A stretch of DNA of 39,050 nucleotides from a bacterium (GTDB taxonomy: Bacteria; Bacteroidota; Ignavibacteria; UBA10030): assembly GCA_043803945.1 (NCBI GenBank), contig JAZDJN010000007.1:1-39050 (forward strand), written 5' to 3'. The number at the start of each line of letters is the position of its first letter. The first letter of the stretch is position 1. Shown piece by piece: positions 13,881 through 33,791 of the stretch. The position numbers and the translations under genes are program-made. The notes below the pieces were generated by a model that ran no database searches, was not told the DNA's origin, and saw only the letters and a list, made by a program, of their open reading frames with translations.

Positions 13881-13909
13881 TTGAGGTTTGATGCTGCATA
13901 TTGTATATT
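13881..13909 (+). promoter_or_regulatory. Putative sigma70 promoter for the K+ transport operon
   Basis: TTGAGG-17 nt-TATATT upstream of ATG 13944. Confidence 0.45.
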
Positions 13910-13943
13910 GAACCCGTTTTTTAGACCAAGGAAAAGAGCTTCA

Positions 13944-14933: not shown

Positions 14934-14945
14934 TGCATAAACAAT

Positions 14946-16946
14946 TTGAAAGGAATGTTTTTGGAAACGGATTCTAATCTTAAAGGACGCGTAAAATCTG
15001 CATTGCTTGGGCGTGCCCGTAATCCCCTTGATCCGCATGTCTTTCACAAACTCTCGCTGATTGCATTCTTCGCCTGGGTTGGCTTAGGCGCTGATGGACT
15101 CTCCTCCTCGTCGTATGGACCCGAAGAGGCTTATAAAGTTCTGGTCGGCCATGAGAATCTCAGTATTTTTATCGCCATCGCATCTGCAATTACGATTTTT
15201 GTCATCAGCCGAAGCTATGTCGAAATTATTGAGCTCTTTCCTTCCGGAGGCGGTGGATACGTCGTCGCCAGTAAGTTGCTAAGCCCTTATGCAGGGATGG
15301 TTTCAGGAGCAGCCCTCATTATCGACTATGTTCTCACAATTACTGTCTCGGTAGCGTCCGGTGTCGATGCCCTGTTGAGTTTTCTTCCGGCAGGGTATCA
15401 GCAATATAAACTCATTGGCTCAGTGCTGGGAGTCTGCCTCCTGATTGTTCTAAATCTCCGGGGGGTCAAAGAATCTGTTTCCGTACTCGTTCCGATCTTT
15501 ATCTTGTTTGTAGCAACGCATGCGTTCGCGATTCTCTATGCCCTTGTTTCACACGCGCTTGATTTACCGGCTGTTACTCATCGAGTAACCACTGACCTGA
15601 CTCAATCGATGACGCAACTCGGCGGCTGGGGTGTCCTGTTTTTGATGTTACGGGCATATAGCATGGGAGCTGGTACGTATACGGGCATTGAGGCTGTCAG
15701 CAATGGGATGGCAATTCTACGAGAACCCCGGGTTGCCACCGGCAAACGGACCATGCTCTACATGGCGGCATCGTTGTCGGTGACTGTGGTCGGGCTCTTC
15801 CTTGCGTATCTGTTATATAAAGTCGCACCCGGCACAGAGAAAACACTTAATGCTGTGTTGTTTGAACGAATGTCAGAAAATTGGAATCCCTCGGTAGCTT
15901 CGACATTTGTAATTGTGATCCTCTTCTCTGAAGCCGCCCTCCTTTTCGTCGCGGCACAAACCGGCTTCCTGGATGGTCCCCGGGTGATGTCGAACATGGC
16001 TCTCGACCGCTGGCTGCCGCGAAAATTCTTTTTACTAAGCGATCGCCTTGTGACGAAGAACGGTATTCTCGTTATGGGCCTCAGCGCCATTGTGATGATG
16101 CTTGTCACAAATGCCTCCGTCACATTCCTCGTGGTGATGTACAGTATCAATGTGTTTCTCACCTTTATGCTCTCTCAATTGGGTATGGTACGTCACTGGT
16201 GGCTTGTGCGGCAAGAGCAACCCAACTGGGAAAAGAAATTGGTCGTGAATGGCTTTGGTTTATGCTTGACAGTGGTCATCTTTATTTCCGTGGTCATCCT
16301 TAAATTTAATGAGGGTGGTTGGATGACGGTTCTCTTCACGGGCTCGTTTATCGCCTTTGTCATCATGGTCCGCAGGAAATATTCCAAGACCCAGCAATTG
16401 CTGAGCCGGTTGAAAGATTTGGAAACGATGCTTCAGGAGGAACTTGATTCGAAATCATCAATCGCCATTCAACCGCCTCCCATGAACACAAAGGCAAAAA
16501 CAGCGGTATTGCTCGTGAATGGCTATAATGGGTATGGACTCCACACTCTCTTCACAAGTCTGCGGACATTTGGAAAGACATTTGAAAATTATGTCTTTGT
16601 TGAGGTGGGAGCCCTTGATGCAGGTACATTCAAAGGGACAAAGGAAATTGCCAACCTTGAGCATCAGGTGGAGGAGGATTTAAAAAAGTACACCCGCTAT
16701 ATGCGTCATCAGGGATATAACACCGATGCGTTCCATTCTCTTGGAGTTGATGTCATAGAGGAAATTTCCAAGCTTGCCGATCAGGTGCTGAGAAAATATC
16801 CCAATTCGGTCTTTTTCACCTCGCAATTAGTGTTCGCGGAGGAGACTTTCTTTACACGTCTTCTGCATAGCTTCACGGCATTTGCCATCCAGAGAAGTCT
16901 GTATCACAAAGGAGCGTCGGTCGTTGTCCTGCCGATCAGGGTGTGA
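14946..16946 (+). CDS. APC-family permease, KimA/YdaO-like K+ transporter
   Basis: GADGLSSSSYGPEEA, GGGGYVVA, YTGIEAVSNG, many TM helices and a cytoplasmic C-domain ending RLLHSFTAFAIQRSL...VVVLPIRV; start may be 14955. Confidence 0.88.
   Translation: MKGMFLETDSNLKGRVKSALLGRARNPLDPHVFHKLSLIAFFAWVGLGADGLSSSSYGPEEAYKVLVGHENLSIFIAIASAITIFVISRSYVEIIELFPSGGGGYVVASKLLSPYAGMVSGAALIIDYVLTITVSVASGVDALLSFLPAGYQQYKLIGSVLGVCLLIVLNLRGVKESVSVLVPIFILFVATHAFAILYALVSHALDLPAVTHRVTTDLTQSMTQLGGWGVLFLMLRAYSMGAGTYTGIEAVSNGMAILREPRVATGKRTMLYMAASLSVTVVGLFLAYLLYKVAPGTEKTLNAVLFERMSENWNPSVASTFVIVILFSEAALLFVAAQTGFLDGPRVMSNMALDRWLPRKFFLLSDRLVTKNGILVMGLSAIVMMLVTNASVTFLVVMYSINVFLTFMLSQLGMVRHWWLVRQEQPNWEKKLVVNGFGLCLTVVIFISVVILKFNEGGWMTVLFTGSFIAFVIMVRRKYSKTQQLLSRLKDLETMLQEELDSKSSIAIQPPPMNTKAKTAVLLVNGYNGYGLHTLFTSLRTFGKTFENYVFVEVGALDAGTFKGTKEIANLEHQVEEDLKKYTRYMRHQGYNTDAFHSLGVDVIEEISKLADQVLRKYPNSVFFTSQLVFAEETFFTRLLHSFTAFAIQRSLYHKGASVVVLPIRV
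16816..16946 (+). repeat. Left copy of duplicated permease 3' end (attL-like, in-frame in the intact gene)
   Basis: Colinear and ungapped with 31700-31830; 92/131 nt and 38/42 aa identical by manual codon alignment. Confidence 0.92.
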
Positions 16947-17009
16947 GAGAGAGTAAGGGTGTTGATTGATATTGACAATGGATGGTAGGACTTTGCGCAT
17001 CCTTGATAC

Positions 17010-17038
17010 TTGAATCTTGATTTCAAAGCATCTATATT
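17010..17038 (+). promoter_or_regulatory. Putative sigma70 promoter of the cas operon
   Basis: TTGAAT-17 nt-TATATT; RBS GGAGGT at 17081-17086 before the cas6 ATG. Confidence 0.55.
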
Positions 17039-17092
17039 GGCATTAGTAAGTTTTGTGTCATCGAGTCTCACCACCTTTCGGGAGGTGCACCG

Positions 17093-17890
17093 ATGCGCCT
17101 TTTACTTGCCTTAAAACCGTTACAAACCGCATGCACAATTCCGCTTAACTATGCCTATTACCTCTCGTCGGCGATCTACCGTTGGATAGAGATTTCATCA
17201 CCTTCGTATGAAAGATTCTTGCACGAAGAGGGTTACCTGTTGGAAGGCACGCTTCGTCGTTTTAAGCATTTCTGTTTCTCTCAACTCTTTATCGAGCATT
17301 CGCGAATTGCAGGGCAGGAAATTTTCATCAATGGTAGTGCGATGCATTGGTACATCAGCATGCCGGTGGAAAAATCGTTGCAGCATCTCGTGATAGGCAT
17401 GTTTGAGAGTCGGGAGTTTTATATCGGGAATAAAGTCAACCGATTTGCTATCCATTCTGTTGCTTCGGTTTCCGATCCGCAGTGGCAGCGGGGGATGAAA
17501 TTCAAGCTTCTTTCTCCGGTCACTGTTTCAACGATGAAGGAACATAACGGCAAGCTGCAGCCACACTATCTCCTGCCGGACGACGGAAGGCTCGGCGAAT
17601 TACTGCGCTCTAATATCATCAACAAATACATTTCACTCTACGGTGAGGAACCGGATGATACGGAATTCACGTGCACGCTGGACCAGAGATATATTGAACG
17701 GAAACAGGCGGCAGGCAAGCGTATCACGACACTGACGACTATTAAACAGGGACTTCCGGAAGAAACCCGCGTGCGGGGATTTATGTGTCCACTGACTATT
17801 GAAGGAAACCCTGGATTGATCCGATTAGCATACGAAAGCGGATTGGGGGAGAAGGGGAGTATGGGATTTGGGATGATGGAAGTGGTGTAG
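17093..17890 (+). CDS. cas6: CRISPR endoribonuclease Cas6
   Basis: FLHEEGY, FKHFCFSQL and C-terminal G-loop GLGEKGSMGFG. Confidence 0.95.
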   Translation: MRLLLALKPLQTACTIPLNYAYYLSSAIYRWIEISSPSYERFLHEEGYLLEGTLRRFKHFCFSQLFIEHSRIAGQEIFINGSAMHWYISMPVEKSLQHLVIGMFESREFYIGNKVNRFAIHSVASVSDPQWQRGMKFKLLSPVTVSTMKEHNGKLQPHYLLPDDGRLGELLRSNIINKYISLYGEEPDDTEFTCTLDQRYIERKQAAGKRITTLTTIKQGLPEETRVRGFMCPLTIEGNPGLIRLAYESGLGEKGSMGFGMMEVV

Positions 17891-17969
17891 GACGTATCAC
17901 CGATCCGTTGTATGTAGGGCGAATCGCTGATTCGTCCAGTTTAAAAAGCAAGATGAAAGGACTTTGTGT

Positions 17970-18122
17970 ATGGACACAAAAAAAGTGACGTTCAAGTGCG
18001 AAGTCATCACGCCGATGTTCCTTGGAGGTGCTGATCCAGATAAACCGGAGTTACGTCCTCCTTCCATACGCGGCGCTATGCGGTGGTGGTTTAGAACGAT
18101 GATCATGAAACACGAGATATGA
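17970..18122 (+). pseudogene. cmr1: Truncated Cmr1-like RAMP N-terminal fragment (50 aa)
   Basis: Not in the ORF track. RBS AAAGGA then MDTKKVTFKCEVITPMFLGGADPDKPELRPPSIRGAMRWWFRTMIMKHEI*, which carries the Cmr1 N-terminal signature TP.F.GG...ELR.PSIRG..RWWFR. Confidence 0.8.
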
Positions 18123-18138
18123 AAGGAATTATTTACAG

Positions 18139-20082
18139 ATGAAATACTTACTTACTCTAAGCATAGGTCCTGTTCAAGACTTTATTGCCAGTGCGCGAAG
18201 AACACGAGATCTATGGTTCGGCTCATGGCTTTTGAGCGAAATCTCAAAGGCCGCGGCGAAGAAAATACGAGATGACAAGGGTGTGCTTATCTTCCCTTCA
18301 CCCCCCCATCTTGAGAAAGATTTACAACCTGACAGTGATTTCAGTGTGGTTAACAAACTCCTCGCGCAGATCGAAACAAGTAACATCTCAAGGTTCTGCG
18401 ATGATATCTACAGCGTCATGTCGATGCGGTTGGGAGTGATCAAAGATGACGCCTTCAAAGAACTAAAGGGGTTAGTCATCCACCGGACAAACGCGAACGT
18501 ACAAATTTTTGACTTAATAGAGTTCTACTGGGCAGCACAACCTCTTGATGGAACCAGTTATGAACTCGTGCGAAAAAAGACAGAAGCCCTACTTGCCGCG
18601 CGCAAAGCCACACGCAATTTTAAGCAAGTTACTTGGGGGCTTAATGTTCCCAAATCTTCAATTGACGGTCTACGCGAATCGGTGATTGATGAATCCGTCT
18701 TTGACCGACTTGACGACAACCAGCTTACCGACGGCCACAAGTATGGCGTTCGAGGGAAAGAAAGATTGTGCGGTGTCGGCTTGCTTAAACGACACGGCAA
18801 GCCAATCAAGAATGCTCAAGGCGTAGACAGCTTTTTCAGCACCTCTCACGTTGCGGCATTGCCATTACTGAACCGGCTTAAAGACAAAGGTGTAGTCGAA
18901 GAATACTTGAATGAGCTCAAAAGAATCCTCGGCATCGGAGATTCAGAAATCAAGGCATATCTTGGTCATGTACCCCAGGGCGCCACGCTCAAGACGCACA
19001 GATTCTTTTGTAATAATGACGGTTCGTTGCTTTATGACGGACATTTGCTTTTCAAAGAAAGACTATGCGAGTTTTTCCTCGATGAGAATACACGAAAAGA
19101 AGCAGAAAAGGCTTTAAAGTCTTTTTTAACGAAGGCTTTCGGCGAGGAAAAATATCCGCATCCTTACTACGCCATCTTGCACGCTGATGGCGACCGCATG
19201 GGGGCAGCAATTGACGAGCAAGCAAAGAAGGGTTATCAAGAACATCAAAAACTCTCACAGGCTCTCAGCAAGTTTGCAGGCAAAGTCAAAGAGATTGTTG
19301 AGAGAGGACACGAAGGCTCTTGCATTTATTCGGGGGGTGATGATGTCCTGGCCTTGTTGCCTTTGCACACGGCTCTACAATGTGCGCGTGTTTTGGCCGA
19401 TGAATTTCAAGACGTATTGAGGGATTTCAAAGATGAAGATCGCAAGACACCAACACTCTCCGTTGGCATTGCTGTAGGTCATCACTTGGATCCTTTGCAG
19501 GAAACTCTTCGATTGGCGCGTGAGGCAGAAAAGGTTGCCAAGAAAGAAGTTCCAAACAAACAGGCACCGGAGAAGAATGCCCTTGCAATTATCTTGAGCA
19601 AGCGAGGCGGTGCAGACCGGACGGTAAAAGGCTCTTGGGATAAGGGCAAAAGCGAAGGAGCGCTGGATTATCGCTTGAATCGTTTTGTTTTCCTGTTTTT
19701 GAAAGATGAATTGCCGGATGGAGCAGCCTATGAGCTGCACGATTTGGCTTTGCGACTCAAACTCTCGAACGGTGCAACGAATGAGCAGAAAGATATTCTG
19801 CTGGATGCACAGCGCGCTGAGGCAAAACGCATCTTGAAACGCAAAAAGCCGAAGCATGGGGAGAAGAAAACCATCGCCGATGATGTGTATAAATATCTGC
19901 ATGGCCTGATAGACTCTCCCGCGCTATCGCTTGAAGAACTTTCAAACGAGATTATCGTAGCACGCGAGTTTAAGGAAGCCTTTGAGCAAGCGGGAATAGA
20001 CGCTGAGAAGTTCGCCGCGGACAATGGGATCATGACCAAGAAAGAAAGCATCGATGACCACTCGGAAGGAGCCAAGAAATGA
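18139..20082 (+). CDS. cas10: Type III-B Cas10/Cmr2, no HD domain, intact palm GGDD
   Basis: Starts directly at IGPVQDFIASARRTRDLWFGSWLLS; YYAILHADGDRMG; YSGGDDVLAL. Confidence 0.95.
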   Translation: MKYLLTLSIGPVQDFIASARRTRDLWFGSWLLSEISKAAAKKIRDDKGVLIFPSPPHLEKDLQPDSDFSVVNKLLAQIETSNISRFCDDIYSVMSMRLGVIKDDAFKELKGLVIHRTNANVQIFDLIEFYWAAQPLDGTSYELVRKKTEALLAARKATRNFKQVTWGLNVPKSSIDGLRESVIDESVFDRLDDNQLTDGHKYGVRGKERLCGVGLLKRHGKPIKNAQGVDSFFSTSHVAALPLLNRLKDKGVVEEYLNELKRILGIGDSEIKAYLGHVPQGATLKTHRFFCNNDGSLLYDGHLLFKERLCEFFLDENTRKEAEKALKSFLTKAFGEEKYPHPYYAILHADGDRMGAAIDEQAKKGYQEHQKLSQALSKFAGKVKEIVERGHEGSCIYSGGDDVLALLPLHTALQCARVLADEFQDVLRDFKDEDRKTPTLSVGIAVGHHLDPLQETLRLAREAEKVAKKEVPNKQAPEKNALAIILSKRGGADRTVKGSWDKGKSEGALDYRLNRFVFLFLKDELPDGAAYELHDLALRLKLSNGATNEQKDILLDAQRAEAKRILKRKKPKHGEKKTIADDVYKYLHGLIDSPALSLEELSNEIIVAREFKEAFEQAGIDAEKFAADNGIMTKKESIDDHSEGAKK

Positions 20083-21293
20083 CGACGAATAAAGTTTGGA
20101 TAATTGAACCACGCGACCCTCTCATAGCCCGAGACGGAAAACCGTTCGGCATGGGTGCGAGCGCGACGACGTTGCCTTTTCCCTTTCCTTCGACCACGAC
20201 GGGCGGCGTTCGCACACGTGCCGGACTTACAAACGGCAGCTTTATTGATAGCGTGGGAGACCCGAACGAAAAATTGATACAAGAGGTTAAAAAAATTGCT
20301 GTACGCGGTGCGTTGTTGGTTGATTTGAATAAACAGGGCGAAATTGAAAACTGGTTTATGCCAGCACCATCGGATGCGTTACTGTTGGAGGACACGAGCG
20401 ACAAGAGTAAAGCGGAGGTCAAAAGACTTGTGCCGCTTAATATTCACAATGGCGCGACAAATCTCAAGCAAGAGCCCCACGAAAACGACGAGCTCGTCCC
20501 ACTTGGTTTGGTTGACTTCGATCCAAACAAGCCTTTTGGTGATGCTCCGCGTTTTTGGCGTTGGGATCGCTTCAAAAAGTGGTTGCTTGAACCGGAGAAG
20601 CTGACGGTCACTATTGACGTAAAAGAATTAGGGCATAACGGCGCGGTCGAAGATACTCGCACGCACGTGGCAATTGATCCGAACAGTTGGACATCGCTTG
20701 AAGGTCAGCTTTTTCAAACTCGAGGGCTTGAATTCACGCATAGCACAGGGAAAGGCCTTAACCACGCTCAACGACTTGGATTAGCCATAAACGTTGAAGA
20801 CCATCAACTGGCGCGGCAGATCAGAAGCGGACTAGCACCACTTGGTGGCGAACGGCGGATAGTTGCCTGGCGGGAAAGCAAGAAACAATTACCAGACGAA
20901 TGCTTGGGGAAAATTCAAGAAAAAGTTGCAATCGACAAAACTTGTCGTGTTGTGCTGCTGACACCTGCTTGCTTCATGCAAGGTTCAAGACCAACTTGGC
21001 TGCTCACACCTCAACATAACGTGACAGTCACATTGCAGTCAATAGCGACGGGGCGTGCGCAAGTTGTCTCTGGATGGGACTTTGAAATAAGAAAACCTAA
21101 GCCGACTCGCCGACTCGCGCCTGCTGGATCGGTGTATTTTCTTAAACTACAAGGCAAGGAGACTGACATCAAGACTTGGGTTGAGAAGACCTGGATGCAG
21201 TGTGTCAGTGATGAAGACCAAGACCGATGCGATGGCTTTGGGCTGGCAGTCGTCGGCGTGTGGGACGGGATACTTCACGAAATGAAGTTTTAA
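20079..21293 (+). CDS. cmr3: Cmr3 (Cas5 group)
   Basis: IEPRDPLIARDGKPF, PFPSTTTG, LGGERR, VSGWD, PAGSVYF, GFG. Confidence 0.93.
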   Translation: MTTNKVWIIEPRDPLIARDGKPFGMGASATTLPFPFPSTTTGGVRTRAGLTNGSFIDSVGDPNEKLIQEVKKIAVRGALLVDLNKQGEIENWFMPAPSDALLLEDTSDKSKAEVKRLVPLNIHNGATNLKQEPHENDELVPLGLVDFDPNKPFGDAPRFWRWDRFKKWLLEPEKLTVTIDVKELGHNGAVEDTRTHVAIDPNSWTSLEGQLFQTRGLEFTHSTGKGLNHAQRLGLAINVEDHQLARQIRSGLAPLGGERRIVAWRESKKQLPDECLGKIQEKVAIDKTCRVVLLTPACFMQGSRPTWLLTPQHNVTVTLQSIATGRAQVVSGWDFEIRKPKPTRRLAPAGSVYFLKLQGKETDIKTWVEKTWMQCVSDEDQDRCDGFGLAVVGVWDGILHEMKF

Positions 21294-21317
21294 TGAAATA
21301 GAAAGAGGTGAGGGACA

Positions 21318-22667
21318 ATGCGAACACTTCCAAAAATAGATGGCGCAATCGTTGCGCCAAAAGGTGAATTTATGCTGGATCTTTCCAAAGATTCGGACGG
21401 CAATGTGATTATCAAGCAAGAACGGAAGTACGAACTCATCACACCTCTGTATGGCGGAGGCGTTGAAGCAGGAAAGAACGACGACATCACAGCCATCAAT
21501 GGTAAAACTATCCGTGGGCATTTACGCTTTTGGTGGCGCTCAACCCGCGGCGGACAATTTGGCGGTAACTTAGAGGAAATGAAAAAGAGAGAAGCGGTAC
21601 TGTGGGGTGGCGCTTCCGGGGAGGATAAGCCATCGCCATCGAAGGTTCAGGTAGGAATTAAAGTTACAGAAAAAGGTAGCCCTATTCACCCTTTTGAAAC
21701 CAATGGTGGCTGGAGAAACTCGAGTCTGCTTTATGCCGCTTTTCCTTTACAGGAAACAAATCAAGCTGTTTCAGCAGGCATTAAGTTTACATTAATGATT
21801 TCTTACCCAATTGAAGAAAATTCCGAAATTGAAGCGGCACTTTGGGCATGGGATACTTTTGGTGGAATCGGTGCGCGTACTCGAAGGGGATTCGGGGCAT
21901 TGAAGCAAGGTACACTGTCTGCAAAGATTGTCAAACTTCAAGAGAGGATTACAGAGGATCTGAAAAAACATGTTCCGTTGGAAAATTGGCATAGAGACGT
22001 CCCTCATTTAAGCAAGAATCTATCCTTTGTCATCGTATCCAGAAAGCAGAAAGAGAACCGCGTTCCTTTTGATTCAGTAGATGAGGCTTGGGAACACCTA
22101 ATAAAAGAACTAAAGGATTTTCGCCAGAGCAGGAGCGGGCGACGATTCGGTAGGAGCAAGTGGCCCGAGCCAGAACAAATTAGACGAATAACGGGACAGC
22201 GTAATCGCCCAGAGGATCCCATACTATTGAGTGTGGAGAAGTTCCCGCGAGCCGTATTCGGCCTGCCAATCATCTTTCACTTCAAAGATGGTAACGAAGA
22301 GCCACCCTACAGCCCTGTGCATGATCCTATTGAAACAACTCTAAAAGGCGGGAAGTACTTAGAAGGGACAACTCCAAAATACCGGGAACGTCTTGCAAGC
22401 CCCCTGATTCTTCGTCCTCTTGCATGTGGAAACAATAAAGCGGTTGGATTAGCTGTTCTTCTCCAATCACCGCGTGTTCCACCAGAGGGACTACGCCTAA
22501 CTGGAGATCGTATCGACCCATCCGTGCAATCAAACTTGATCAAGACAGAAGCGTTAAAGATCGAGCCATTGAAACAGTTGGCAGTAAAGCTTAAGAAAGA
22601 TGATGACGAACTTGATGTGCTAGAAGCATTCATGGATATGTTGAGAAAAAAGGAGAACGACTTATGA
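21318..22667 (+). CDS. cmr1: Cmr1 RAMP
   Basis: LITPLYGGG, IRGHLRFWWR, GGIGARTRRGFG, FGLPI.F, RLASPL. Confidence 0.92.
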   Translation: MRTLPKIDGAIVAPKGEFMLDLSKDSDGNVIIKQERKYELITPLYGGGVEAGKNDDITAINGKTIRGHLRFWWRSTRGGQFGGNLEEMKKREAVLWGGASGEDKPSPSKVQVGIKVTEKGSPIHPFETNGGWRNSSLLYAAFPLQETNQAVSAGIKFTLMISYPIEENSEIEAALWAWDTFGGIGARTRRGFGALKQGTLSAKIVKLQERITEDLKKHVPLENWHRDVPHLSKNLSFVIVSRKQKENRVPFDSVDEAWEHLIKELKDFRQSRSGRRFGRSKWPEPEQIRRITGQRNRPEDPILLSVEKFPRAVFGLPIIFHFKDGNEEPPYSPVHDPIETTLKGGKYLEGTTPKYRERLASPLILRPLACGNNKAVGLAVLLQSPRVPPEGLRLTGDRIDPSVQSNLIKTEALKIEPLKQLAVKLKKDDDELDVLEAFMDMLRKKENDL

Positions 22668-23560: not shown

Positions 23561-23589
23561 GTTCGTTCATCGCGAAAGGATAGACAATT

Positions 23590-23997: not shown

Positions 23998-24014
23998 CTT
24001 TGAGAGGCAAGACT

Positions 24015-24776: not shown

Positions 24777-24825
24777 TCGAATGCCCGACATCCTGATAGG
24801 AACATTCAAATACAAGGAGTTTCGC

Positions 24826-25359
24826 ATGGACTGGTGGCAGAATATTGGCAACATCGCAAATATCATTCAAATCATCTCCGCAATACCCTTCTTCGTAGGT
24901 GCATGGCTGCTCTTCACTCGCGCCCGGCGGTATAAAAAGAAACTGCAAGAAACTGAGAGGACACTCACTGCCAAACCAATGGCATTAGTCTTATCGTTGA
25001 GCGGAATGGATATTACAGAGCAAGCAAAACAATGGCTTGAAAACAATATTGGAAAGATGGAAATTGTATCGTATCACAAACCGAATGGGGTCACAAAGGA
25101 AAACATCTCACTTTTGATGACAGACATTTTAATGCTAAAGTCGAAAATGACCAATGAGGGTGTAACAGAAGTACACCTTTTTCTTATGGCTCCAATCGCT
25201 TTCGGTGCAGCCGTTGGCGCTATTCTGGATAATTGGGTTCAAGTCAAGGTATATCATCTGAATCGTGAAAAGAATGAGTACGAATACTGGACTTACCTCC
25301 ATAAAGGATTCATTCCCGGCCTCGATGATTCTCTGCTGAAGGACATCGTAAGAGAATAG
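24826..25359 (+). CDS. CRISPR accessory protein: N-terminal TM helix plus single SAVED/CARF-like lobe (putative cOA-gated membrane effector)
   Basis: RBS AAGGAG before ATG 24826; hydrophobic segment at aa ~10-30; EVHLFLMAPIAFGAAVGAILDNWVQVKVYH resembles the SAVED C-lobe motif. Confidence 0.7.
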   Translation: MDWWQNIGNIANIIQIISAIPFFVGAWLLFTRARRYKKKLQETERTLTAKPMALVLSLSGMDITEQAKQWLENNIGKMEIVSYHKPNGVTKENISLLMTDILMLKSKMTNEGVTEVHLFLMAPIAFGAAVGAILDNWVQVKVYHLNREKNEYEYWTYLHKGFIPGLDDSLLKDIVRE

Positions 25360-25452
25360 CCTCTGTGTTCCTCTGTCTCTCTAACCACTATTTCAGCAAA
25401 AAAAAGGTTCTAGTTGCAATAGTTAAGCGCCACATTACTCAAGGATCGCACC

Positions 25453-26058
25453 ATGAATACCACAGCAATTGTAATTGAGCATCTTGTCATCGGAATTCAA
25501 ACCGCTTTGTGGATTGTGTGCGTAATTTTTGCAATATACGGCTATCAATGGATTCCGGTTCTTACGCTTCCTTCGCAACTGTTTGTTGTAATGCTTTCTC
25601 TGCTTGTGGTGTATCCACTGGGAGTATTCATTGACGAGGTCTCGGATCGAATGTTCCGCAATTGGAGCTTAAAGATACGAAGGAAATATGTGCATGACGA
25701 TAAGCAGACGGCATTTAAACTTCTCGTTAAGTTGAAAGACAGTCCCACGACCCTATACTTTCAGTATTTGCGGAGCAGGATTCGGATTGCTCGCTCGTCA
25801 ACAGTGAACATCCCTTTGTTGACGGTGGCTGTTATATTTTTAACGGTGCGCCAGTTTTCCTCAATACTCAGAGAGATGACGGCAGGTGTTGTTATAATCG
25901 AGGCAACTATTGGAGCTATCGTAACACTCCTGGCATTATTCTCGTGGCAGCGTGTCAGCGATACGTTTGCCAAACGGATTCAATGGGGTTTCGAGGCTCT
26001 CAAAGAACAGGGTGGCAGGATGCACCGACATGCCCAATTCACAAAAAGAACAAACTGA
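25453..26058 (+). CDS. Uncharacterised ~4-TM membrane protein in cas operon
   Basis: About four hydrophobic segments; YPLGVFIDEVSD and YLRSRIRIARS motifs; family not recognised. Confidence 0.7.
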   Translation: MNTTAIVIEHLVIGIQTALWIVCVIFAIYGYQWIPVLTLPSQLFVVMLSLLVVYPLGVFIDEVSDRMFRNWSLKIRRKYVHDDKQTAFKLLVKLKDSPTTLYFQYLRSRIRIARSSTVNIPLLTVAVIFLTVRQFSSILREMTAGVVIIEATIGAIVTLLALFSWQRVSDTFAKRIQWGFEALKEQGGRMHRHAQFTKRTN

Positions 26059-26080
26059 TATTTGGAAAGGATAATTCCCC

Positions 26081-26455
26081 ATGCTTCTCAACCTCTCTAA
26101 CCATCCTCTTGATAAATGGTCTGCAGAACAGCGCGAAGCGGCGGAGCAGCAGTTCGGTGCAGTAGAAGACATGCCTTTTCCGCAATTAGATCCGGGCGCC
26201 TCGCTCGAAGCAATCAATGCGGTTGTGGATGACTACCTCACAAAATGCACGGAGCGACTCAAGACGGCGAAAACCGATGCAGCCAATGCCATACACTTGA
26301 TGGGAGAGTATACGTTCAGTTACCAATTTCTTAAAAAGATGGAAGCGCTTGGCATTCCTTGTGTAGCGTCCACCACAGAGCGGATAGTAACAAATAATCC
26401 CGATGGCTCGAAAACAACGGTCTTCAAGTTTGTACAGTTTCGCCCGTACTTCTAA
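26081..26455 (+). CDS. Csx20-like stand-alone CARF protein (putative ring nuclease)
   Basis: NLSNHP..W..EQ, PFPQLDP, HLMGEYTF, STTER...DG....F.FV.FR.Y, resembling Csx20/Crn1-type small CARF proteins. Confidence 0.75.
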   Translation: MLLNLSNHPLDKWSAEQREAAEQQFGAVEDMPFPQLDPGASLEAINAVVDDYLTKCTERLKTAKTDAANAIHLMGEYTFSYQFLKKMEALGIPCVASTTERIVTNNPDGSKTTVFKFVQFRPYF

Positions 26456-26456
26456 A

Positions 26457-26549
26457 GTAGGTCGGGTCGCCCGCCTATCGGACGGGCAAGCTGACCCGAC
26501 CCGAATGGATCATGATACTTTACCTGACGGGACTGGCGTCCCGTCCTAC
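26457..26549. repeat. REP doublet (REPIN-like) upstream of RAYT
   Basis: GTAG-GTCGGGTCG[CCCGCCTATCGGACGGGCAA]GCTGACCCGACC ... GACGGGACTGGCGTCCCGTC-CTAC. Confidence 0.75.
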
Positions 26550-26550
26550 A

Positions 26551-27228
26551 ATGATGAATGAACCAAAAACATATTACCGTCGCCACTTACCACATTACCA
26601 GCCGGAGCATGGAATATTCCATGTTGTGTTTCGCTTGACAGGATCGCTGCCGGTCGAAGTTATCGAAGAACTTCGGCAAGAGCGAGAACAATGGGAGCGA
26701 AAAGCAAAGGAGGTAAAGGATGCAGGTGAACAACAGAAGCAGCTTACCCAAGTCCGTTGGGCATACTTCGAACGATTCGATACGCTCTTGGATGGAACCT
26801 CAAGTGGGCCGATGTGGCTTAAACAAACCGAAGCTGCAATCGTTGTTACGGAAGCGATTTGTCACCGCGACGGGAAAGAGTACGATCTGCTGGCCTATTG
26901 TATTATGCCCAACCACGTGCATTTGGTCTTTGAGCTTGTAGGTCGACTCGCTGAGTCGACCAGTACTAAAGATGGTCGAGACGGCGTCTCGACCTACATA
27001 GTCACTCAAATTCTTGAATCTCTCAAGAAGTACACCGCCTTGCGGGTTAATCGTGTCCTTCATCGTAGTGGAGCTTTTTGGCAACACGAAAGCTATGACC
27101 ATGTTATTCGAGATGAAGAAGAGCTGGAGAAAACGATATGGTATGTCTTACTCAATCCGGTAAAAGCGGGATTGGTGAAAGAATGGGAACAATGGAAATG
27201 GACATATTGTAAACCGGGTCTATTATAA
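26551..27228 (+). CDS. REP-associated tyrosine (Y1/HUH) transposase, RAYT
   Basis: YRRHLPH, YCIMPNHVHLV (HUH), FWQHESYDHVIRD, YVLLNPVKAGL. Confidence 0.9.
   Translation: MMNEPKTYYRRHLPHYQPEHGIFHVVFRLTGSLPVEVIEELRQEREQWERKAKEVKDAGEQQKQLTQVRWAYFERFDTLLDGTSSGPMWLKQTEAAIVVTEAICHRDGKEYDLLAYCIMPNHVHLVFELVGRLAESTSTKDGRDGVSTYIVTQILESLKKYTALRVNRVLHRSGAFWQHESYDHVIRDEEELEKTIWYVLLNPVKAGLVKEWEQWKWTYCKPGLL
26938..26997. repeat. REP doublet inserted in-frame inside the RAYT gene
   Basis: GTAGGTCGACTCGCTGAGTCGACC...GGTCGAGACGGCGTCTCGACCTAC (60 nt). Confidence 0.85.
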
Positions 27229-27254
27229 GTCGAGTCGCCTAATCAAATGAACTT

Positions 27255-27341
27255 GTAGGTCGACTCGCTGAGTCGACCAGCACTGAAAATGGTCGAGACA
27301 CCCCGCCTGAACGATTCAGTCGGATAAGCGTCTCGATTTAC
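27255..27341. repeat. Second copy of the REP doublet, downstream of RAYT, with nested insert
   Basis: GTAGGTCGACTCGCTGAGTCGACC...GGTCGAGAC[ACCCCGCCTGAACGATTCAGTCGGATAA]GCGTCTCGATTTAC. Confidence 0.8.
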
Positions 27342-27354
27342 AGTGAAAACATCT

Positions 27355-29412
27355 ATGAATAAAACTACGACACACACGATCATGCTTTACTCCCGCATTG
27401 CCTCTCTCGACAATCTCACCGATGGTTGGCACAAGGTCGAGGATAACGATGGCGCTGCCGGCGTTGACGGCGTTTCTATTCTTGACTTCAGATCGAGCGT
27501 TCATGAACGATTGCAGGCATTGCACGATCTGTTGGAAGAAAAGAACTATGTGCCCCAACCACTGCTGACATTCTCCAAACCAAAACTAAGCGGCGGCGTG
27601 CGGATCCTCTCCATTCCAACGGTAACAGACCGTATTGTGCAGGCATCGGCGCTGCTTGTGCTCAATCCCCTCATTGATCCATTGTTTTCCGATGCAAGCT
27701 TTGCCTTTCGCAAAGGCATCTCGCGGCTTGATGCGGCAGACCAGATAGACGCACTACGCGAGGAAGGGTACCGTTATGTCGTTGATGCCGATATTGAGCA
27801 GTTCTTCGATACTGTCGATCATACCGTGCTGTTGAAGCGTTGTGCACAGGTGATCCCTGATCCCGACGTGGTGCATCTGATCAAACTATGGATAGAGTCG
27901 GATGCGCTGATTGAGGGTGTTCGCACTAAACGAATACAAGGTTTACCGCAGGGCGCGGTGATTTCTCCACTGCTCGCAAATCTGTACCTCGATCAGTTTG
28001 ACGACATGCTGGAAGCGAAAGGGAACAAGCTCATCCGGTTTGCCGACGACTTTGTCATTCTTTGCAAAACACAACCGCAGGCGGAACACGCTTTGGAGCT
28101 GACTGAGGACATTCTTGCGACATTGAAGCTGAAACTGCATGCCGAGAAAACGCGCATCACCTCATTCGATGAAGGCTTCAGATACTTAGGCTATCTCTTC
28201 GTTAAAAGTCTTGTTCTTCCCTCTAAAAAGCCTTCTACAGCCGATCAGGATACAATGTTAAAACTCGTACAATCGGCAAGGGAGATTATTGAAAAGGAAA
28301 TGCAAAAATCGGGTGTTGTGCCGGTTGAGCCCGCGACACCGGCGGAGGAGGGAGGCTCCACGGCACGGCAAACGCGTGAAGGTGCACAAGCGTACTCTCC
28401 TTTTCTCCGCACGCTCTATATACAGGAACAAGGCTCCACCTTGCGGCGCGAGAGCGAACGGCTGATCGTTCAGAGCGGGGAAAAGGAAGTGCTGGATGTG
28501 CAGGCAATTAAGGTGGAGCAAATCTTCATCTTTGGCGCTTGCATGATCACCCCTGCTGCCATGCGCTTCTGCTTAATACGGGAGATTCCCATTACGCTGC
28601 TTTCGAATATCGGAGAGTATTACGGTCGGATTGAAGCGACAACGGAGGACCATTCGTTATTACAGCGGATGCAAGCGCTGCGTGTGTTAGATAACGAGTT
28701 TGTTCTCGTAACGGCAAAAGCAATTGTGCGGGGTAAGATTGAAAACTCCATCGATCTTTTACAGCGTCAGCATCGAAAGTCGCATCGTATTGTGCTGACC
28801 GAAGCGATAAAGGCTCTTCGATCGCACCAGAGCAAGCTGCTCGATGCAACGAAACTCGATCAGGTGCTCGGCTATGAGGGAGCCGCTGCCGCACGGTACT
28901 TCGATTCATTCAGCAGCATGTTACTGAACTCCGATTTTCATTTTACAAAGCGCACGCGCCAGCCCCCGCAAGACAGGATGAACAGCCTGCTCAGCTTTTT
29001 CTATACACTCTTGTTTTATAATGTGTATTCACTTGTTCAAGCATATGGATTAAATCCATTTTGGGGGATTCTGCATCGCGATAAACACAATCATCCCGCG
29101 CTCGTGAGCGATCTTGTAGAGGAATATCGCTGTGTGGTAGAATCCGCAGCCATCTATATGGTGAACAATAAAATGCTCCGTGCTCACGATTTTTATGAAA
29201 GCAAAACCTCGAACGTGCCGTTTCTTCTCACAGACGAAGCGCGCCGCAAGGTGCTGCGCGTGTTCGAAGAGACCATGCAGCAAACCACGATGCATACCGA
29301 CTCCGGACGCTCCATGAGCATTCGCCGCTGTATCGAAGCGCAAGTGCGTTTGCTGGGGAAGGTTATTCTCAGCGAACGACCGGCGTATGTTCCTTTCCGC
29401 CGCGGTGGCTGA
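27355..29412 (+). CDS. cas1: Reverse transcriptase-Cas1 fusion
   Basis: Group II-like RT (GAAGVDG, IPTVTDRIVQ, DADIEQFFD, GLPQGAVISPLLANLYL, RFADD, FRYLGY), linker, then Cas1 (LYIQEQG, GYEGAAAARYF, NSLLSF.Y, GILH, ALVSDLVEEYR). Start uncertain (27343, 27355 or 27382). Confidence 0.95.
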   Translation: MNKTTTHTIMLYSRIASLDNLTDGWHKVEDNDGAAGVDGVSILDFRSSVHERLQALHDLLEEKNYVPQPLLTFSKPKLSGGVRILSIPTVTDRIVQASALLVLNPLIDPLFSDASFAFRKGISRLDAADQIDALREEGYRYVVDADIEQFFDTVDHTVLLKRCAQVIPDPDVVHLIKLWIESDALIEGVRTKRIQGLPQGAVISPLLANLYLDQFDDMLEAKGNKLIRFADDFVILCKTQPQAEHALELTEDILATLKLKLHAEKTRITSFDEGFRYLGYLFVKSLVLPSKKPSTADQDTMLKLVQSAREIIEKEMQKSGVVPVEPATPAEEGGSTARQTREGAQAYSPFLRTLYIQEQGSTLRRESERLIVQSGEKEVLDVQAIKVEQIFIFGACMITPAAMRFCLIREIPITLLSNIGEYYGRIEATTEDHSLLQRMQALRVLDNEFVLVTAKAIVRGKIENSIDLLQRQHRKSHRIVLTEAIKALRSHQSKLLDATKLDQVLGYEGAAAARYFDSFSSMLLNSDFHFTKRTRQPPQDRMNSLLSFFYTLLFYNVYSLVQAYGLNPFWGILHRDKHNHPALVSDLVEEYRCVVESAAIYMVNNKMLRAHDFYESKTSNVPFLLTDEARRKVLRVFEETMQQTTMHTDSGRSMSIRRCIEAQVRLLGKVILSERPAYVPFRRGG

Positions 29413-29491
29413 AGCAGAAGGGTTCCTTCAGCCAAGCGTGACACAGGCAGAAGGAACCCTTTTTCATCTTCAAGCAGGAGGGATAATATTT

Positions 29492-29764
29492 ATGTTCTAC
29501 GTTGTTGCCTATGACATCGTGAGCGACAGGCGCCGGACAAAAGTGGCTAAGATCCTTGAGGATTTTGGCACACGGGTGCAGTACAGCGTATTCGAATGCA
29601 ACCTGACTGATGCCGAGCGCAAGCGATTGCAGAAAAAGCTTGCACGGTATGTTGAGACAGGAGATAGCATACGGTACTATATGCTTTGCGCTTCGTGCAA
29701 AGAAAAGGTGGATATCGTGGGCGAGGGAATGCTCACTCGTGATAAAGAGTATTATCTTGCATAA
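29492..29764 (+). CDS. cas2: Cas2
   Basis: RBS AGGAGG; MFYVVAYDIV...RVQYSVFEC...DSIRYYMLC. Confidence 0.95.
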   Translation: MFYVVAYDIVSDRRRTKVAKILEDFGTRVQYSVFECNLTDAERKRLQKKLARYVETGDSIRYYMLCASCKEKVDIVGEGMLTRDKEYYLA

Positions 29765-30008
29765 GGGTGCAGGAATACCCAGGTTGATTATTGTAGAGGC
29801 CCTTGGAGAATCCTGACCATTTGAGGATTATCCGAGACACTTCAAGTACTCACCCCTTTAGAACTCTGCAATCTGTTGTGGCAGAGAGAGTTGTACTTGA
29901 CAAAACCGTGGAAAATGCTTACATAGCAATGGAAAATTTAAAGAACTATGCTACCCCTTAATTCGGCACTTGTAACTTGTTGAGCTGCAAAGGTTTTTTT
30001 GATGGTTG
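29765..30008 (+). promoter_or_regulatory. CRISPR leader with candidate promoter
   Basis: Non-coding region between cas2 and the first repeat; TTGACA at 29897-29902 followed 17 nt later by TACATA. Confidence 0.7.
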
Positions 30009-31699
30009 GTTCTATTTCAATCGGACTAAATTAGAATTGAAACTTTGCCTTTTGATGGAGCTGAATACATCTTCAGCTCCCGAGAGGGGTTCTATTTCAA
30101 TCGGACTAAATTAGAATTGAAACTCTCCTAATAAAAGGTGAGATGAATGGTGGATTTTTAGCGTTCTATTTCAATCGGACTAAATTAGAATTGAAACAAA
30201 AACAAGGAATGCAATTACATAGGCAGTTATAAGAATGTTCTATTTCAATCGGACTAAATTAGAATTGAAACAGTTGCATTAACTCATAGAGCAAGAACTC
30301 AAACAATGTCTGTTCTATTTCAATCGGACTAAATTAGAATTGAAACACATATGGCATATTCAGCAGTTGCATTGATTATCGCGCGTTCTATTTCAATCGG
30401 ACTAAATTAGAATTGAAACCTTTGAGGTCAGACCCTTCTCCTGAATGAGAATGAGATATTTTAGTTCTATTTCAATCGGACTAAATTAGAATTGAAACTA
30501 AATATAGCCTGTCCAGTCTGAGCATCGGCAGTAATCGCGTCGGTTCTATTTCAATCGGACTAAATTAGAATTGAAACTGAATTAAAGCAGAGAGGATAGA
30601 TCTTGATTGTAGAGTGGTTCTATTTCAATCGGACTAAATTAGAATTGAAACTTTGTTATTCTTTTGTCTCCACCCCTCGTTCATCGCGAGTTCTATTTCA
30701 ATCGGACTAAATTAGAATTGAAACTTTTTTTTATCGCCTTTTCTATTTCCTCGAGAAGCCGTTCGTTCTATTTCAATCGGACTAAATTAGAATTGAAACT
30801 CTTCACCATTCATCGAGACTGTGATGTTGATGTTGGGAGGTTCTATTTCAATCGGACTAAATTAGAATTGAAACTCGACGTACTCCCCATATCTTCCGTA
30901 GGGTCATAGAGGATAAGTTCTATTTCAATCGGACTAAATTAGAATTGAAACTTGACTTGCGGGTCCAGCTTCTCGGTAGAACCGTAGTAGCTCGTTCTAT
31001 TTCAATCGGACTAAATTAGAATTGAAACGCATTGCGGTGAGGTATCTGGAAAACTGGGTTGAAATACTGTTCTATTTCAATCGGACTAAATTAGAATTGA
31101 AACTTCTTTCCAGAATTAATACTGCCTTCCCTTGTCTTAAAAAGTTCTATTTCAATCGGACTAAATTAGAATTGAAACCTTTTTACTATTTCTTTCAGAA
31201 CTTCTCTACAAACTTTAGAGTTCTATTTCAATCGGACTAAATTAGAATTGAAACTCTGGAATTCGAGCTCGTGCATCGCCCTGATATATTCAGTTCTATT
31301 TCAATCGGACTAAATTAGAATTGAAACTACATCTTTGCCCAATACGTTTGGATCATGTATAGTTCCGTTCTATTTCAATCGGACTAAATTAGAATTGAAA
31401 CTTGGGAGCAAATGCGCTGGATGTGAATGCTGAGATGACCGTCGTTCTATTTCAATCGGACTAAATTAGAATTGAAACCTTTTTCCCAACTTTCAGATGG
31501 GTAAATACTCCCAGCGTTCTATTTCAATCGGACTAAATTAGAATTGAAACCTCTTTAAAACGTCGCTGGAGCTCATCCTTATCAGAAATGCGTTCTATTT
31601 CAATCGGACTAAATTAGAATTGAAACTTTAAACTAATTGCGTCTTTAAGAGCCGATTCCAAGAGGTTCTATTTCAATCGGACTAAATTAGAATTGAAAC
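30009..31699 (+). CRISPR. CRISPR array: 23 identical 35-nt repeats GTTCTATTTCAATCGGACTAAATTAGAATTGAAAC, 22 spacers of 37-45 nt
   Basis: Counted directly; the 3' ATTGAAAC handle and leader position indicate + strand transcription. Confidence 0.98.
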
Positions 31700-31830
31700 T
31701 CACTTCTCAAATGGTCTTTGCTGAAGAAACATTCTTTACCCGGTTGCTTCACAGCTTTACATCGTTTGCCATTCAGCGTAATCTATACCATAAGGGAGCT
31801 TCAGTAGTCATTCTACCAATCCGCGTTTGA
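31700..31830 (+). pseudogene. Orphan (displaced) 3' fragment of the APC permease gene
   Basis: Encodes TSQMVFAEETFFTRLLHSFTSFAIQRNLYHKGASVVILPIRV*, versus TSQLVFAEETFFTRLLHSFTAFAIQRSLYHKGASVVVLPIRV* at 16818-16946. Confidence 0.93.
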
Positions 31831-31891
31831 TCGGAGATGAGCAAACGAACGGTTACTCTCCTTTGGGAATGATGGAACGAAAAGAAGGAGC

Positions 31892-33721: not shown

Positions 33722-33791
33722 AGTGTCTAATCGTTGGTGTAAGTATACAAACAACAGAGGGAAATATCAACGGAAGGTATGTATGGTTAAT

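Follow-up and report, generated by a model that had tools for sequence, protein, structure and literature searches.

In the window analyzed here, the first 39,050 nucleotides of contig JAZDJN010000007.1 of an Ignavibacteria genome (GCA_043803945.1), the last repeat of a CRISPR array is joined directly to the orphaned 3′ end of a KimA-type transporter gene. The joint lies inside a lineage-specific block of ~17 kb (about 14934-31891) that separates a K+ channel gene from a GT4 glycosyltransferase gene. An intact KimA-type gene (copy A) comes first in this block, the orphaned end (B′, the remnant of copy B) comes last, and a complete type III-B CRISPR-Cas locus with an RT-Cas1/Cas2 adaptation module lies between them (Table 1). 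An earlier, sequence-only reading of this DNA had likewise placed the CRISPR-Cas segment between a complete gene and a displaced permease 3′ end, and that arrangement stands. The joint coincides with a repeat/spacer boundary, the sole place of Cas1-Cas2 chemistry, and may be either a footprint of the CRISPR machinery reshaping the chromosome or a coincidence. Our preference, a tentative one that falls short of even confidence, is that a spacer of host origin recombined with the gene it came from to give the junction.

Table 1. Features of the block and its flanking genes, with positions numbered from the first base of the window
Feature	Position	Strand	Basis or description
K+ channel gene (Kch; Ion_trans_2 + TrkA_N + TrkA_C), native left flank	13881-14933	+	Pfam
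KimA-type K+ transporter gene, copy A, intact (APC superfamily)	14955-16946	+	Pfam AA_permease_2; PDB KimA 6s3k
End of copy A homologous to B′	16816-16946	+	92/131 nt, 38/42 aa identical to 31700-31830
cas6	17093-17890	+	Pfam, NCBIfam
Type III-B effector genes, whole set	18139-24776	+	NCBIfam equivalogs, Pfam
cmr2/cas10	18139-20082	+	NCBIfam, Pfam
cmr3	20079-21293	+	Pfam E 1.6e-75; NCBIfam score below cut-off
cmr1	21318-22667	+	NCBIfam, Pfam
cmr4	22664-23560	+	NCBIfam, Pfam
cmr5	23590-23997	+	NCBIfam, Pfam
cmr6	24000-24776	+	NCBIfam, Pfam
Accessory genes, whole set	24721-26455	+	Domain searches; order as in G106
SAVED-domain ORF	24721-25359	+	
Conserved ORF of unknown function	25453-26058	+	
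csx20	26081-26455	+	
RAYT-like (REP-associated tyrosine/HUH Y1 transposase) ORF	26512-27228	+	NCBIfam 75.1 bits against a cut-off of 80
Adaptation genes, RT-Cas1 fusion + cas2	27343-29764	+	Domain searches
RT-Cas1 fusion	27343-29412	+	RVT_1 + Cas_Cas1 in a single 689-aa ORF
cas2	29387-29764	+	
Leader	29765-30008	+	cas2 side of array; blocks conserved with the G246 leader beside its first repeat
CRISPR array	30009-31699	+	23 repeats of 35 nt, 22 spacers of 37-45 nt
Orphaned 3′ end, copy B′	31700-31830	+	Last 42 codons + TGA of a second KimA-type gene; frame intact
GT4 glycosyltransferase-polysaccharide deacetylase fusion gene, native right flank	31892-33754	-	Pfam

The limits of the block are set by comparison with other genomes of the family. 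Homologues of the channel gene (63–69% identity) adjoin GT4 homologues in G157, G023, G143, and G131, and G157 is collinear with the locus over at least eight flanking genes. Across the family, the GT4 homologues have 45–53% identity and conserved neighbors; the gene is convergent with Kch or with orf242/Lon in 13 of the 29 family loci and has a permease beside it in none of them. The uninterrupted target gene that the sequence-only reading expected in relatives, a permease convergent with GT4, is accordingly missing from all 29. Because the channel and GT4 genes are direct convergent neighbors in other genera of the family, the transporter gene, the CRISPR locus, and the orphaned end constitute one block, and the lack of a permease in any of the family loci means that this variable block takes in the whole permease gene. 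The synteny of the flanks also argues against the contig being a chimera of unrelated regions.

Copy A, with a likely ATG at 14955, 21 nt past the stop of the channel gene, is a KimA-type K+ transporter gene with K+ transport as its predicted function. It aligns with KimA (6s3k) with an E value of 8.8e-58 over residues 25–485, the membrane domain, and its best homologues in any collection searched are 56–58% identical. The final 131 nt of copy A had been described as recurring ungapped after the array. The alignment is indeed ungapped, in a common frame, and with a TGA terminating both sequences, but "recurring" overstates a nucleotide identity of 70% (92/131) in which the longest identical run is 8 nt. 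Of the 42 encoded residues, 38 are identical; 32 of the 39 nucleotide differences are at third codon positions, with pS of ~1.0 and pN of 0.079. The match of B′ to copy A is far above chance (E of 5e-18 in a search of the organism's own genome), and the pair was recovered neither by repeat finding (seed 9) nor by blastn (word 9). The claim that homology starts at the base after repeat 23 holds: its onset is 31700, the first base 3′ of that repeat, where TCAC is identical at 4 of 4 positions, and outside the homologous region the upstream 60 nt match at 9/60 positions and the 100 nt past the stops at 23/100.

Judged from these alignments, the likeness of the two ends is at the level of protein, and they are old homologues, sister sequences long split. 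Each is the closest relative of the other, with 38/42 identical residues, whereas the 89 comparable sequences among 119 database homologues reach at most 30/42 and at most 28/42. The saturation of their synonymous sites shows that the two ends are neither a target duplication nor an att repeat, and no identical core longer than 8 nt is present. B′ contains no stop or frameshift, differs by conservative changes only, and has the family-typical C terminus ...LPIRV followed by a stop. This undecayed state means that B′ was truncated recently compared with its split from A. The missing 5′ part of copy B was found on no other contig of the genome. The left junction at 16816 is an assumption, and codon usage and GC3 give no signal of a breakpoint there. 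Intact gene A could be a gene in its own right, an older paralogue or xenologue of B, or else a chimera of B's own 5′ part and a foreign 3′ end from an incoming island (gene-end replacement).

The CRISPR-Cas locus encodes Cas10/Cmr2 together with Cmr1, Cmr3, Cmr4, Cmr5, and Cmr6, each recognized by NCBIfam and Pfam, as well as an RT-Cas1 fusion, Cas2, Cas6, and an array with a leader. The order of the accessory genes (SAVED-domain ORF, conserved ORF, csx20) recurs in G106 at 41–63% identity. The adaptation genes are 81% identical to those of G246, a genome of a different family, indicating that this module has moved between families. The RAYT-like ORF, which is accompanied by two 52-nt palindrome-bearing repeats (26931-26982 and 27248-27299), is missing from G246, where csx20 is directly 5′ of RT-Cas1; it is an insertion within the cas locus.

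The array repeat, GTTCTATTTCAATCGGACTAAATTAGAATTGAAAC, is present in 23 exact copies, the last one included. It has a weak stem (-2.7 kcal/mol) and ends at its 3′ side in ATTGAAAC, which we take to be the tag. The perfection of the terminal repeat had been offered as a clue to the origin of the junction; all 23 copies are identical as stated, but the end repeats of C87, the only other fully assembled array of the genome, are also perfect, so that the clue is weak evidence and calls for no special cause. With the leader next to cas2, the joint falls at the older end of the array, where a truncating deletion would act. The base that follows the repeat is T at the joint and in 14 of the 22 spacers, as compared with 32% T in the spacers overall, and many spacers open with T or TC. 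None of the 22 spacers matches the organism's own genome, and there is thus no direct sign of host-derived spacers. The repeat is absent from all other contigs of the genome. A scan of genome contigs for related arrays found only the related repeat of G246 and a different 30-nt repeat class, and a scan of metagenomes found none.

According to the preferred reading, the boundary between the repeat and TCAC would first have been created by ordinary Cas1-Cas2 spacer integration. RT-Cas1/Cas2 would have captured a ~40-nt spacer from the B gene or its mRNA, in the sense orientation, in which it would be harmless for a type III system. This spacer would then have recombined homologously with its source, downstream on the same chromosome, and the resulting deletion would have taken away the older part of the array, any further sequence up to B (perhaps including an integrase module), and ~1.87 kb from the start of B, so that repeat 23 would become fused in register to B at position -131. 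The observed joint is in register at the exact repeat/spacer boundary, as the product of spacer-target recombination requires. Cas6 cleavage occurs 8 nt inside the repeat, and RNA processing would therefore not explain the position of the joint. Spacers are described as able to recombine with their targets (PMC8616872 and 10.1101/2020.10.09.333658, each with reference to Varble et al. 2019). A type III-B system with RT-Cas1 is described as acquiring spacers from both RNA and DNA in either orientation (PMC5576922), which makes a harmless sense-strand host spacer plausible. Several observations go against spacer recombination: 38 nt is a short substrate for RecA, the proposed B spacer leaves no trace and none of the 22 spacers is from the own genome, and the arrangement is a single case in 277 genomes.

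The same boundary could have been produced by an illegitimate deletion or replacement with a chance or microhomology endpoint. The starting state would have been a pair of adjacent KimA-type genes, or a resident gene next to an incoming gene-plus-CRISPR segment, and the event would have taken out the distal array together with most of copy B. The array-side endpoint would have fallen at, or 1–3 nt from, a repeat/spacer boundary. We consider this a serious possibility, if a somewhat doubtful one. An exact register has a probability of ~1.3% with a 72–80-nt unit, and of at most ~4% when microhomology is allowed, and the weakness of the repeat stem means that hairpin-promoted breakage is not a strong alternative cause; on the other hand, a chance of ~1–4 in 100, conditional on an endpoint within the array, is too large to disregard when the case was chosen from many windows. 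The frequent T or TC at the start of spacers implies that a microhomology of 1–2 nt could mask the true endpoint. The lack of self-derived spacers, the perfect end repeats of C87, and the uniqueness of the case are all in keeping with a chance endpoint, as is the lack of mobile-element signatures. Neither a recombinase of the tyrosine or serine type nor a DDE transposase was found in ORFs on either strand between the copies (16947-31699), which agrees with the earlier reading, except that its account of the segment had passed over the RAYT-like HUH ORF. No identical att core longer than 8 nt is present at the two ends, the sole identity at the joint being TCAC; no target-site duplication was found, the 131-nt pair being only 70% identical and hence not a duplication; and in place of terminal inverted repeats the boundary regions have in common only chance 8-nt words. 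The search proposed earlier, for arrays that abut a duplicated gene end, gave no second case: among the 66 genomes with a KimA C terminus of the 277 in the order, G000 alone has a 3′ fragment beside an array. Tandem KimA copies were seen in none of those genomes, and the collections searched contained no relative whose array is longer or whose B is intact; both results count against spacer recombination.

These negative results also bear on a classical gene-end-replacing integrative island whose recombinase was lost or acted in trans (CIME-like). Such an island, 16816-31699, would have entered the one resident kimA by site-specific insertion 131 nt ahead of its stop codon, bringing in the foreign end 16816-16946 and displacing the native end 31700-31830, with the array end as its att-side end. 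This history is the most economical in number of genes; copy A begins 21 nt from the channel gene and B′ stops 61 nt from the convergent stop of GT4, as one split gene would, the homology begins at the joint and ceases at the stop codon, and the adaptation module has moved between families. It is nevertheless improbable, because there is no integrase, the identity at the joint is limited to TCAC, no room is left for attachment-site arms between array and joint, a duplicated kimA end occurs in no other genome of the order, G246 carries a related module and has no KimA C-terminus match, and the 16816 junction is unsupported by codon usage or GC3. We regard an assembly artefact, in which the true array is longer or contains a spacer identical to a kimA gene elsewhere and a wrong path was taken from repeat 23, as the least probable of the explanations. 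The genome is a 118-contig draft, and three further arrays (C48, C56, and C62) are at contig ends, showing that arrays do break its assembly. However, the flanks of the block are syntenic neighbors in relatives, so the contig joins the right regions, neither the array repeat nor the 5′ part of copy B is on any other contig, and the kimA ends have no common word longer than 8 nt.

Known systems resemble the locus in part. In the staphylococcal phage case (PMC8616872; 10.1101/2020.10.09.333658), a spacer is described as acting as a short homology, with target-adjacent DNA joined at the repeat/spacer boundary; there the spacer recombines with a phage genome and the CRISPR locus is transduced as a result, whereas here it would have recombined with a chromosomal transporter gene to leave a locus-fixing deletion, the spacer itself being unobserved. 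The integration of Streptococcus pyogenes phage AP1.1 into CRISPR repeats (10.1101/2020.10.09.333658) also joins foreign or rearranged DNA to a repeat, with the array truncated or remodeled. As described, that phage has an integrase, shares 8 bp of its attP exactly with the repeat, and crosses over inside the repeat, whereas the present joint is at the last base of the repeat, has no integrase, and leads into a gene end of host type. Casposons, Cas1-mobilized transposons (PMC9939771), similarly have a Cas1-family integrase as the only integrase-type enzyme of the segment, but their terminal inverted repeats, 14–15-bp target duplication, and polymerase B are missing here, and the Cas1 in question is the ordinary enzyme of CRISPR adaptation, in fusion with RT. 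The Marinomonas mediterranea type III-B system (PMC5576922, PMC11014452) is described with the same combination of III-B effector and RT-Cas1/Cas2; the likeness is at the family level of Pfam and NCBIfam domains, cas6 is a separate gene here, and host-derived spacers number 0 among 22. The pattern of the present locus, an intact gene ahead of the CRISPR segment and a displaced homologous 3′ end behind it, is also compatible with an integrative island. Some integrative islands target a gene 3′ end and supply a replacement end, their integrase-less derivatives being known as CIMEs. Unlike these, the block lacks both a recombinase and an identical att core (8 nt being the longest run), its ends are only 70% identical, no empty site with the gene was found in relatives, and one of its ends is a CRISPR repeat.

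A further proposal is that RT-Cas1/Cas2 itself made the chromosomal joint, which we consider unlikely. A host-mRNA spacer would have guided recombination as the integrase-less segment entered or became fixed in kimA, or a broken or reverse-transcribed kimA end would have been ligated directly to the repeat border. For direct joining by Cas1, to which we assign a very low probability, a chromosomal 3′-OH within kimA would have served as a prespacer end and been ligated to the spacer-side border of the repeat in a half-site integration, which repair or replication would have resolved to the present fusion. The polarity and position of the joint are those of the spacer-side integration step in Cas1-Cas2 chemistry, and the genes for an intact RT-Cas1 and for Cas2 lie 2 kb from it. 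Long chromosomal substrates have, to our knowledge, no precedent in vivo. The joint is at the 23rd repeat rather than the leader-proximal one, there is no repeat-length target duplication or terminal inverted repeat, and a second, unexplained event would be required to resolve the branched intermediate. RT-Cas1/Cas2 is described as integrating unusual substrates, such as 3′-dN-tailed RNA (PMC11014452). If RT-Cas1/Cas2 did make the joint, the adaptation machinery would be the mobilizing or anchoring enzyme of its own locus.

The gene upstream of the CRISPR-Cas genes encodes a K+ transporter of KimA type, from the APC superfamily (Pfam; PDB 6s3k, E 8.8e-58), and the label K+ permease given in the sequence-only reading was reasonable. 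Between the 3' end of this gene (A's end) and an orphan 3' end (B', with B as its putative gene of origin) lies a locus that, to judge from its gene content, is a standard type III-B system with an RT-Cas1 adaptation module and every defining part present. The leader is on the cas2 side and contains conserved blocks in common with the leader of a related locus in G246, a genome from another family; B' therefore lies at the trailer end, the old end of the array.

Features of the transporter and CRISPR-Cas region in map order
Feature	Position	Description
K+ channel gene (Kch)	13881-14933 (+)	
Variable block	~14934 to 31891	whole transporter gene, CRISPR-Cas locus and B'
Transporter gene A	14955-16946 (+)	intact, KimA-type
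A's end	16816-16946 (+)	last 131 nt of gene A
cas6		
cmr2/cas10, cmr3, cmr1, cmr4, cmr5, cmr6		
SAVED-domain ORF	24721-25359	212 aa
Conserved unknown ORF		
csx20		
RAYT-like HUH transposase ORF	within 26456-27342	with two 52-nt palindrome-bearing repeats
RT-Cas1 fusion		
cas2		
Leader		244 nt
CRISPR array	30009-31699	35-nt repeat present in 23 exact copies; 22 spacers (37-45 nt)
Spacers	30044-31664	
B'	31700-31830 (+)	42 codons and TGA
GT4-deacetylase fusion gene (GT4)	31892-33754 (-)	

The sequence-only reading had described the interval as free of tyrosine/serine recombinases and DDE transposases. On neither strand between A's end and B' was any enzyme of these kinds found, but an ORF for a RAYT-like (REP-associated) HUH tyrosine transposase is present, inserted between csx20 and RT-Cas1. 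This ORF is a local insertion; in the G246 locus csx20 directly precedes RT-Cas1, with no RAYT-like gene. Each of the 52-nt repeats around the ORF bears a 21-nt palindrome that occurs just twice in the 5.5-Mb genome, both times here. Weak DNA matches to the region were found on contigs C61 and C56, the latter of which also carries a second cas1 and an array. The SAVED-domain ORF is short, its match to SAVED models covers just their C-terminal part, and it shares 56 nt with the end of cmr6; a related locus of another genome (G106) has a homologue of 63% identity at the same place.

A's end and B' align without gaps and in identical frame, and both terminate in TGA. The homology starts at the first base after the last repeat, where TCAC is identical at 4/4 positions, and the array side of the joint is an exact repeat/spacer boundary without trailer DNA. 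Matches fall to 9/60 in the preceding 60 nt and to 23/100 in the 100 nt beyond both stop codons. The transporter protein, used as query against the whole genome, recovered the B' fragment at E 5e-18, so the match is real. The recurrence of the permease end that had been noticed from the sequence thus stands as an ungapped, in-frame 131-nt match but not as a duplication, since only 92/131 nt are identical and no identical run exceeds 8 nt; the pair was matched neither by a DNA repeat search nor by blastn at word size 9. Third codon positions account for 32 of the 39 differences, and 38/42 residues are identical. Nei-Gojobori counting gives pS ~1.0 and pN 0.079, and the same codon is kept in nine of the 38 identical residues, where random synonymous choice would, by a rough estimate, keep about a dozen. 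On these counts the two ends are diverged homologues that separated very long ago and evolved as working genes. B' has no stop or frameshift and its four changes are all conservative (L/M, A/S, S/N, and V/I); it has scarcely decayed and was therefore cut off recently relative to its divergence from A. A retro-copy of the mRNA of the resident gene was rejected as the source of B' because B' differs from the genome's only such gene at nearly all synonymous sites, and an adenine-specific pattern like that of a DGR was rejected because the differences are of mixed type and mostly at third positions, with transitions at 22 sites and transversions at 17. The 5' ends of the spacers are T-rich, with T as the first base in 14/22 and at 10-11/22 for each of positions 2-6, as compared with 32% T across the spacers; the 3' ends have no comparable T bias. 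This could reflect a preference of RT-Cas1/Cas2 or tailing during acquisition.

The lineage is without close relatives in the collections searched. The best match to the transporter, among 41 relatives and the 277 genomes of the order, is 58% identical; for its C-terminal half the ceiling among 5.8 billion proteins is 56%, and the GT4-deacetylase gene has no homologue above 53%; the 42-aa B' peptide, searched against the 5.8 billion proteins at the longer lengths, matched only the window's own protein. In a comparison of C termini that covered 89 of 119 database homologues, the 38/42 identity between A's end and B' exceeds that of any other homologue, which reaches 30/42 with A and 28/42 with B' at best, and the two ends have in common several states that the wider family lacks. 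By this comparison A's end and B' are sister sequences. Because the transporter subfamily is more often met in the order's other families than in the organism's own, where it is rare, it was probably gained by this lineage. The window copy groups with the copies of other families (54-58%), which suggests horizontal acquisition. A second full-length KimA-type gene (C25:19591-21552), 49% identical to the window copy, groups by its C-terminal 80 residues with own-family copies. Composition, codon usage, and GC3 marked no part of the block and neither 43-codon end as foreign; the GC profile is flat except for the AT-rich array, and the codon-usage score and GC3 of all genes and both ends fall within the genome's spread. 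No tRNA genes, looked for as a sign of foreign origin, were found. Short KimA C-terminal fragments elsewhere in the order (G090, G151, G104, and G145) proved to be contig edges or frameshifted genes with no arrays near.

Comparison with 29 family loci bearing GT4 located the variable region. Kch is directly convergent with GT4 in four (G143, G157, G023, and G131), with gaps of ~25 to ~890 nt; in nine, from a single genus, Lon and orf242 are directly convergent with GT4, and a Yip1 gene lies on the other side of GT4 in 12. G157 is collinear with the window through orf242, Kch, GT4, Yip1, and four more genes, and G023 has Lon-orf242-Kch convergent with GT4. The empty site as observed is Kch convergent with GT4. 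The site predicted from the sequence, with the transporter convergent with GT4, was not found; 0/29 loci have a transporter there. Linkage of GT4 or Kch to the transporter is likewise absent in G025, G029, G036, G032, and G027, and the 1.5-kb flanks of 11 transporter-homologue loci contain no window gene. From the family-level synteny of the flanks, the variable block takes in the entire transporter gene.

How the two ends came to lie in one block may be explained in more than one way. A segment carrying a foreign replacement end may have split a single resident kimA gene at -131, which would fit the closeness of A's start to the channel gene (21 nt) and of B' to GT4 (61 nt), as well as the end of the homology at the stop codon. 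Alternatively, there may have been tandem kimA genes of which the downstream one lost its first ~1.87 kb, which accounts without extra assumption for both ends being mutual closest relatives, although no tandem copies were seen in the other 65 genomes in which a KimA C terminus was found. Homology-facilitated replacement by a syntenic foreign segment is unlikely, because the saturated synonymous divergence leaves no homology or RecA anchor for a left crossover and the ranking of relatives is the same on either flank.

A relative of the adaptation module is present in G246 (L046, G246:C182), a genome from a different family of the same order, where Csx20, RT-Cas1, and Cas2 are 80-83% identical to those at window positions 26081-29764. 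Its leader is partly conserved and its 35-nt repeat is related; the array runs off a 4.3-kb contig, and Cas6 was not found in G246. The exchange of the adaptation module seems to have been recent and independent of the effector genes. The related locus in G106 (31-63%) has a different repeat, a degenerate last repeat, and no transporter near. In metagenome contigs an exact 26-nt repeat pattern had no matches and RT-Cas1 had two loci at 42-43%; plasmids gave at most 36% for RT-Cas1 and 43% for the transporter. Of eight stretches of genome contigs matched by a degenerate repeat pattern, six are of a different 30-nt repeat class, one belongs to G246, and the last (L061) stands alone without a surrounding array. 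In an Omnitrophota MAG (L063, ~3030-3434, minus strand) an unrelated array of the 30-nt GTTTTAATCGGACTAATGTAGAATTGAAAC class has one repeat isolated 166 nt from the next three by DNA of non-spacer length. The genome under study has at least four further arrays. Those on C48 (35 copies) and C62 (77 copies) have a repeat in common, that on C56 has 24 copies, and all three begin at contig ends; the array on C87 has 10 copies with perfect end repeats, and we take its repeat to be type I-E-like.

To our knowledge, Cas1-Cas2 integration is the sole process that acts at exactly the repeat/spacer bond. Cas6 cleaves 8 nt inside the repeat, so RNA-level processes do not fit the joint, and Cas6 or RNA-processing ends were ruled out as its cause; the repeat stem is weak (-2.7 kcal/mol). 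Two routes through the adaptation machinery were weighed. (i) An ordinary spacer would have been acquired from the B gene or its mRNA and would later have recombined with its own source, lying downstream in direct orientation, deleting the older array, anything past it, and most of B. Self-derived spacers are uncommon, giving this route a low prior, which the exact register of the joint roughly offsets; a T follows the repeat directly, as it does in 14/22 spacers, and tips the balance slightly in its favor. A sense spacer would presumably be harmless to a type III system, given how such systems recognize transcripts. Recombination between a spacer and a phage target has precedent in passages of PMC8616872 and 10.1101/2020.10.09.333658, both citing Varble et al. 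2019. (ii) The integrase would have ligated a chromosomal 3' end straight to the repeat border. Against both routes, none of the 22 spacers matches the organism's own genome, no sister array bearing the presumed spacer was found in that genome, the genome contigs, or the metagenome contigs, and the search for other arrays abutting a duplicated gene end gave no second gene-fragment/array case in 277 genomes of the order. We know of no in vivo precedent for such direct joining and consider route (ii) improbable. Spacer-guided recombination by route (i) is the reading that we tentatively favor.

A deletion endpoint that fell in the array by chance is a serious competitor, if a somewhat doubtful one: exact register has a probability of ~1.3%, or up to ~4% with 1-2 nt of microhomology, and many spacers begin with T or TC. 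A classical integrative element with no spacer involved has little likelihood. The layout is like that of elements that target gene ends, but this locus has no recombinase, no identical core, and no empty site containing the gene; at the boundaries of the block and of the island, a search for att-like or inverted repeats gave only 8-nt words, and no boundary intergenic segment has a further copy in the genome. Neither joint gave anything informative in promoter and terminator scans. An assembly artefact is the least probable explanation and very unlikely; the synteny makes a chimeric contig unlikely, as the regions on either side of the block belong with each other. Casposons differ from this locus, which lacks inverted ends and a target duplication. 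In prophage integration into CRISPR repeats, as described in 10.1101/2020.10.09.333658, the crossover falls within the repeat and an integrase takes part, neither of which applies here. Spacer-target recombination is the mechanistic precedent that comes nearest, here on a chromosomal gene.

The observation is real but needs correction, and the earlier interpretation is partly supported: the displaced 3' gene end and the absence of an integrase hold, and the mobility of the locus, its left boundary, and the role of the repeat are unproven. As a single case in a lineage without sampled close relatives, it is a lead for a systematic survey rather than a demonstration. How CRISPR-Cas loci move between genomes and settle is largely unexplained, and most have no recombinase of their own. 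A trailer end fused with base precision at the repeat border to a host-type gene fragment would be a natural trace of either spacer-guided recombination, so far shown between array and phage, or off-pathway action of Cas1-Cas2 on chromosomal DNA. Either process, if true, would mean that the adaptation machinery can rearrange the host chromosome and stabilize the locus.
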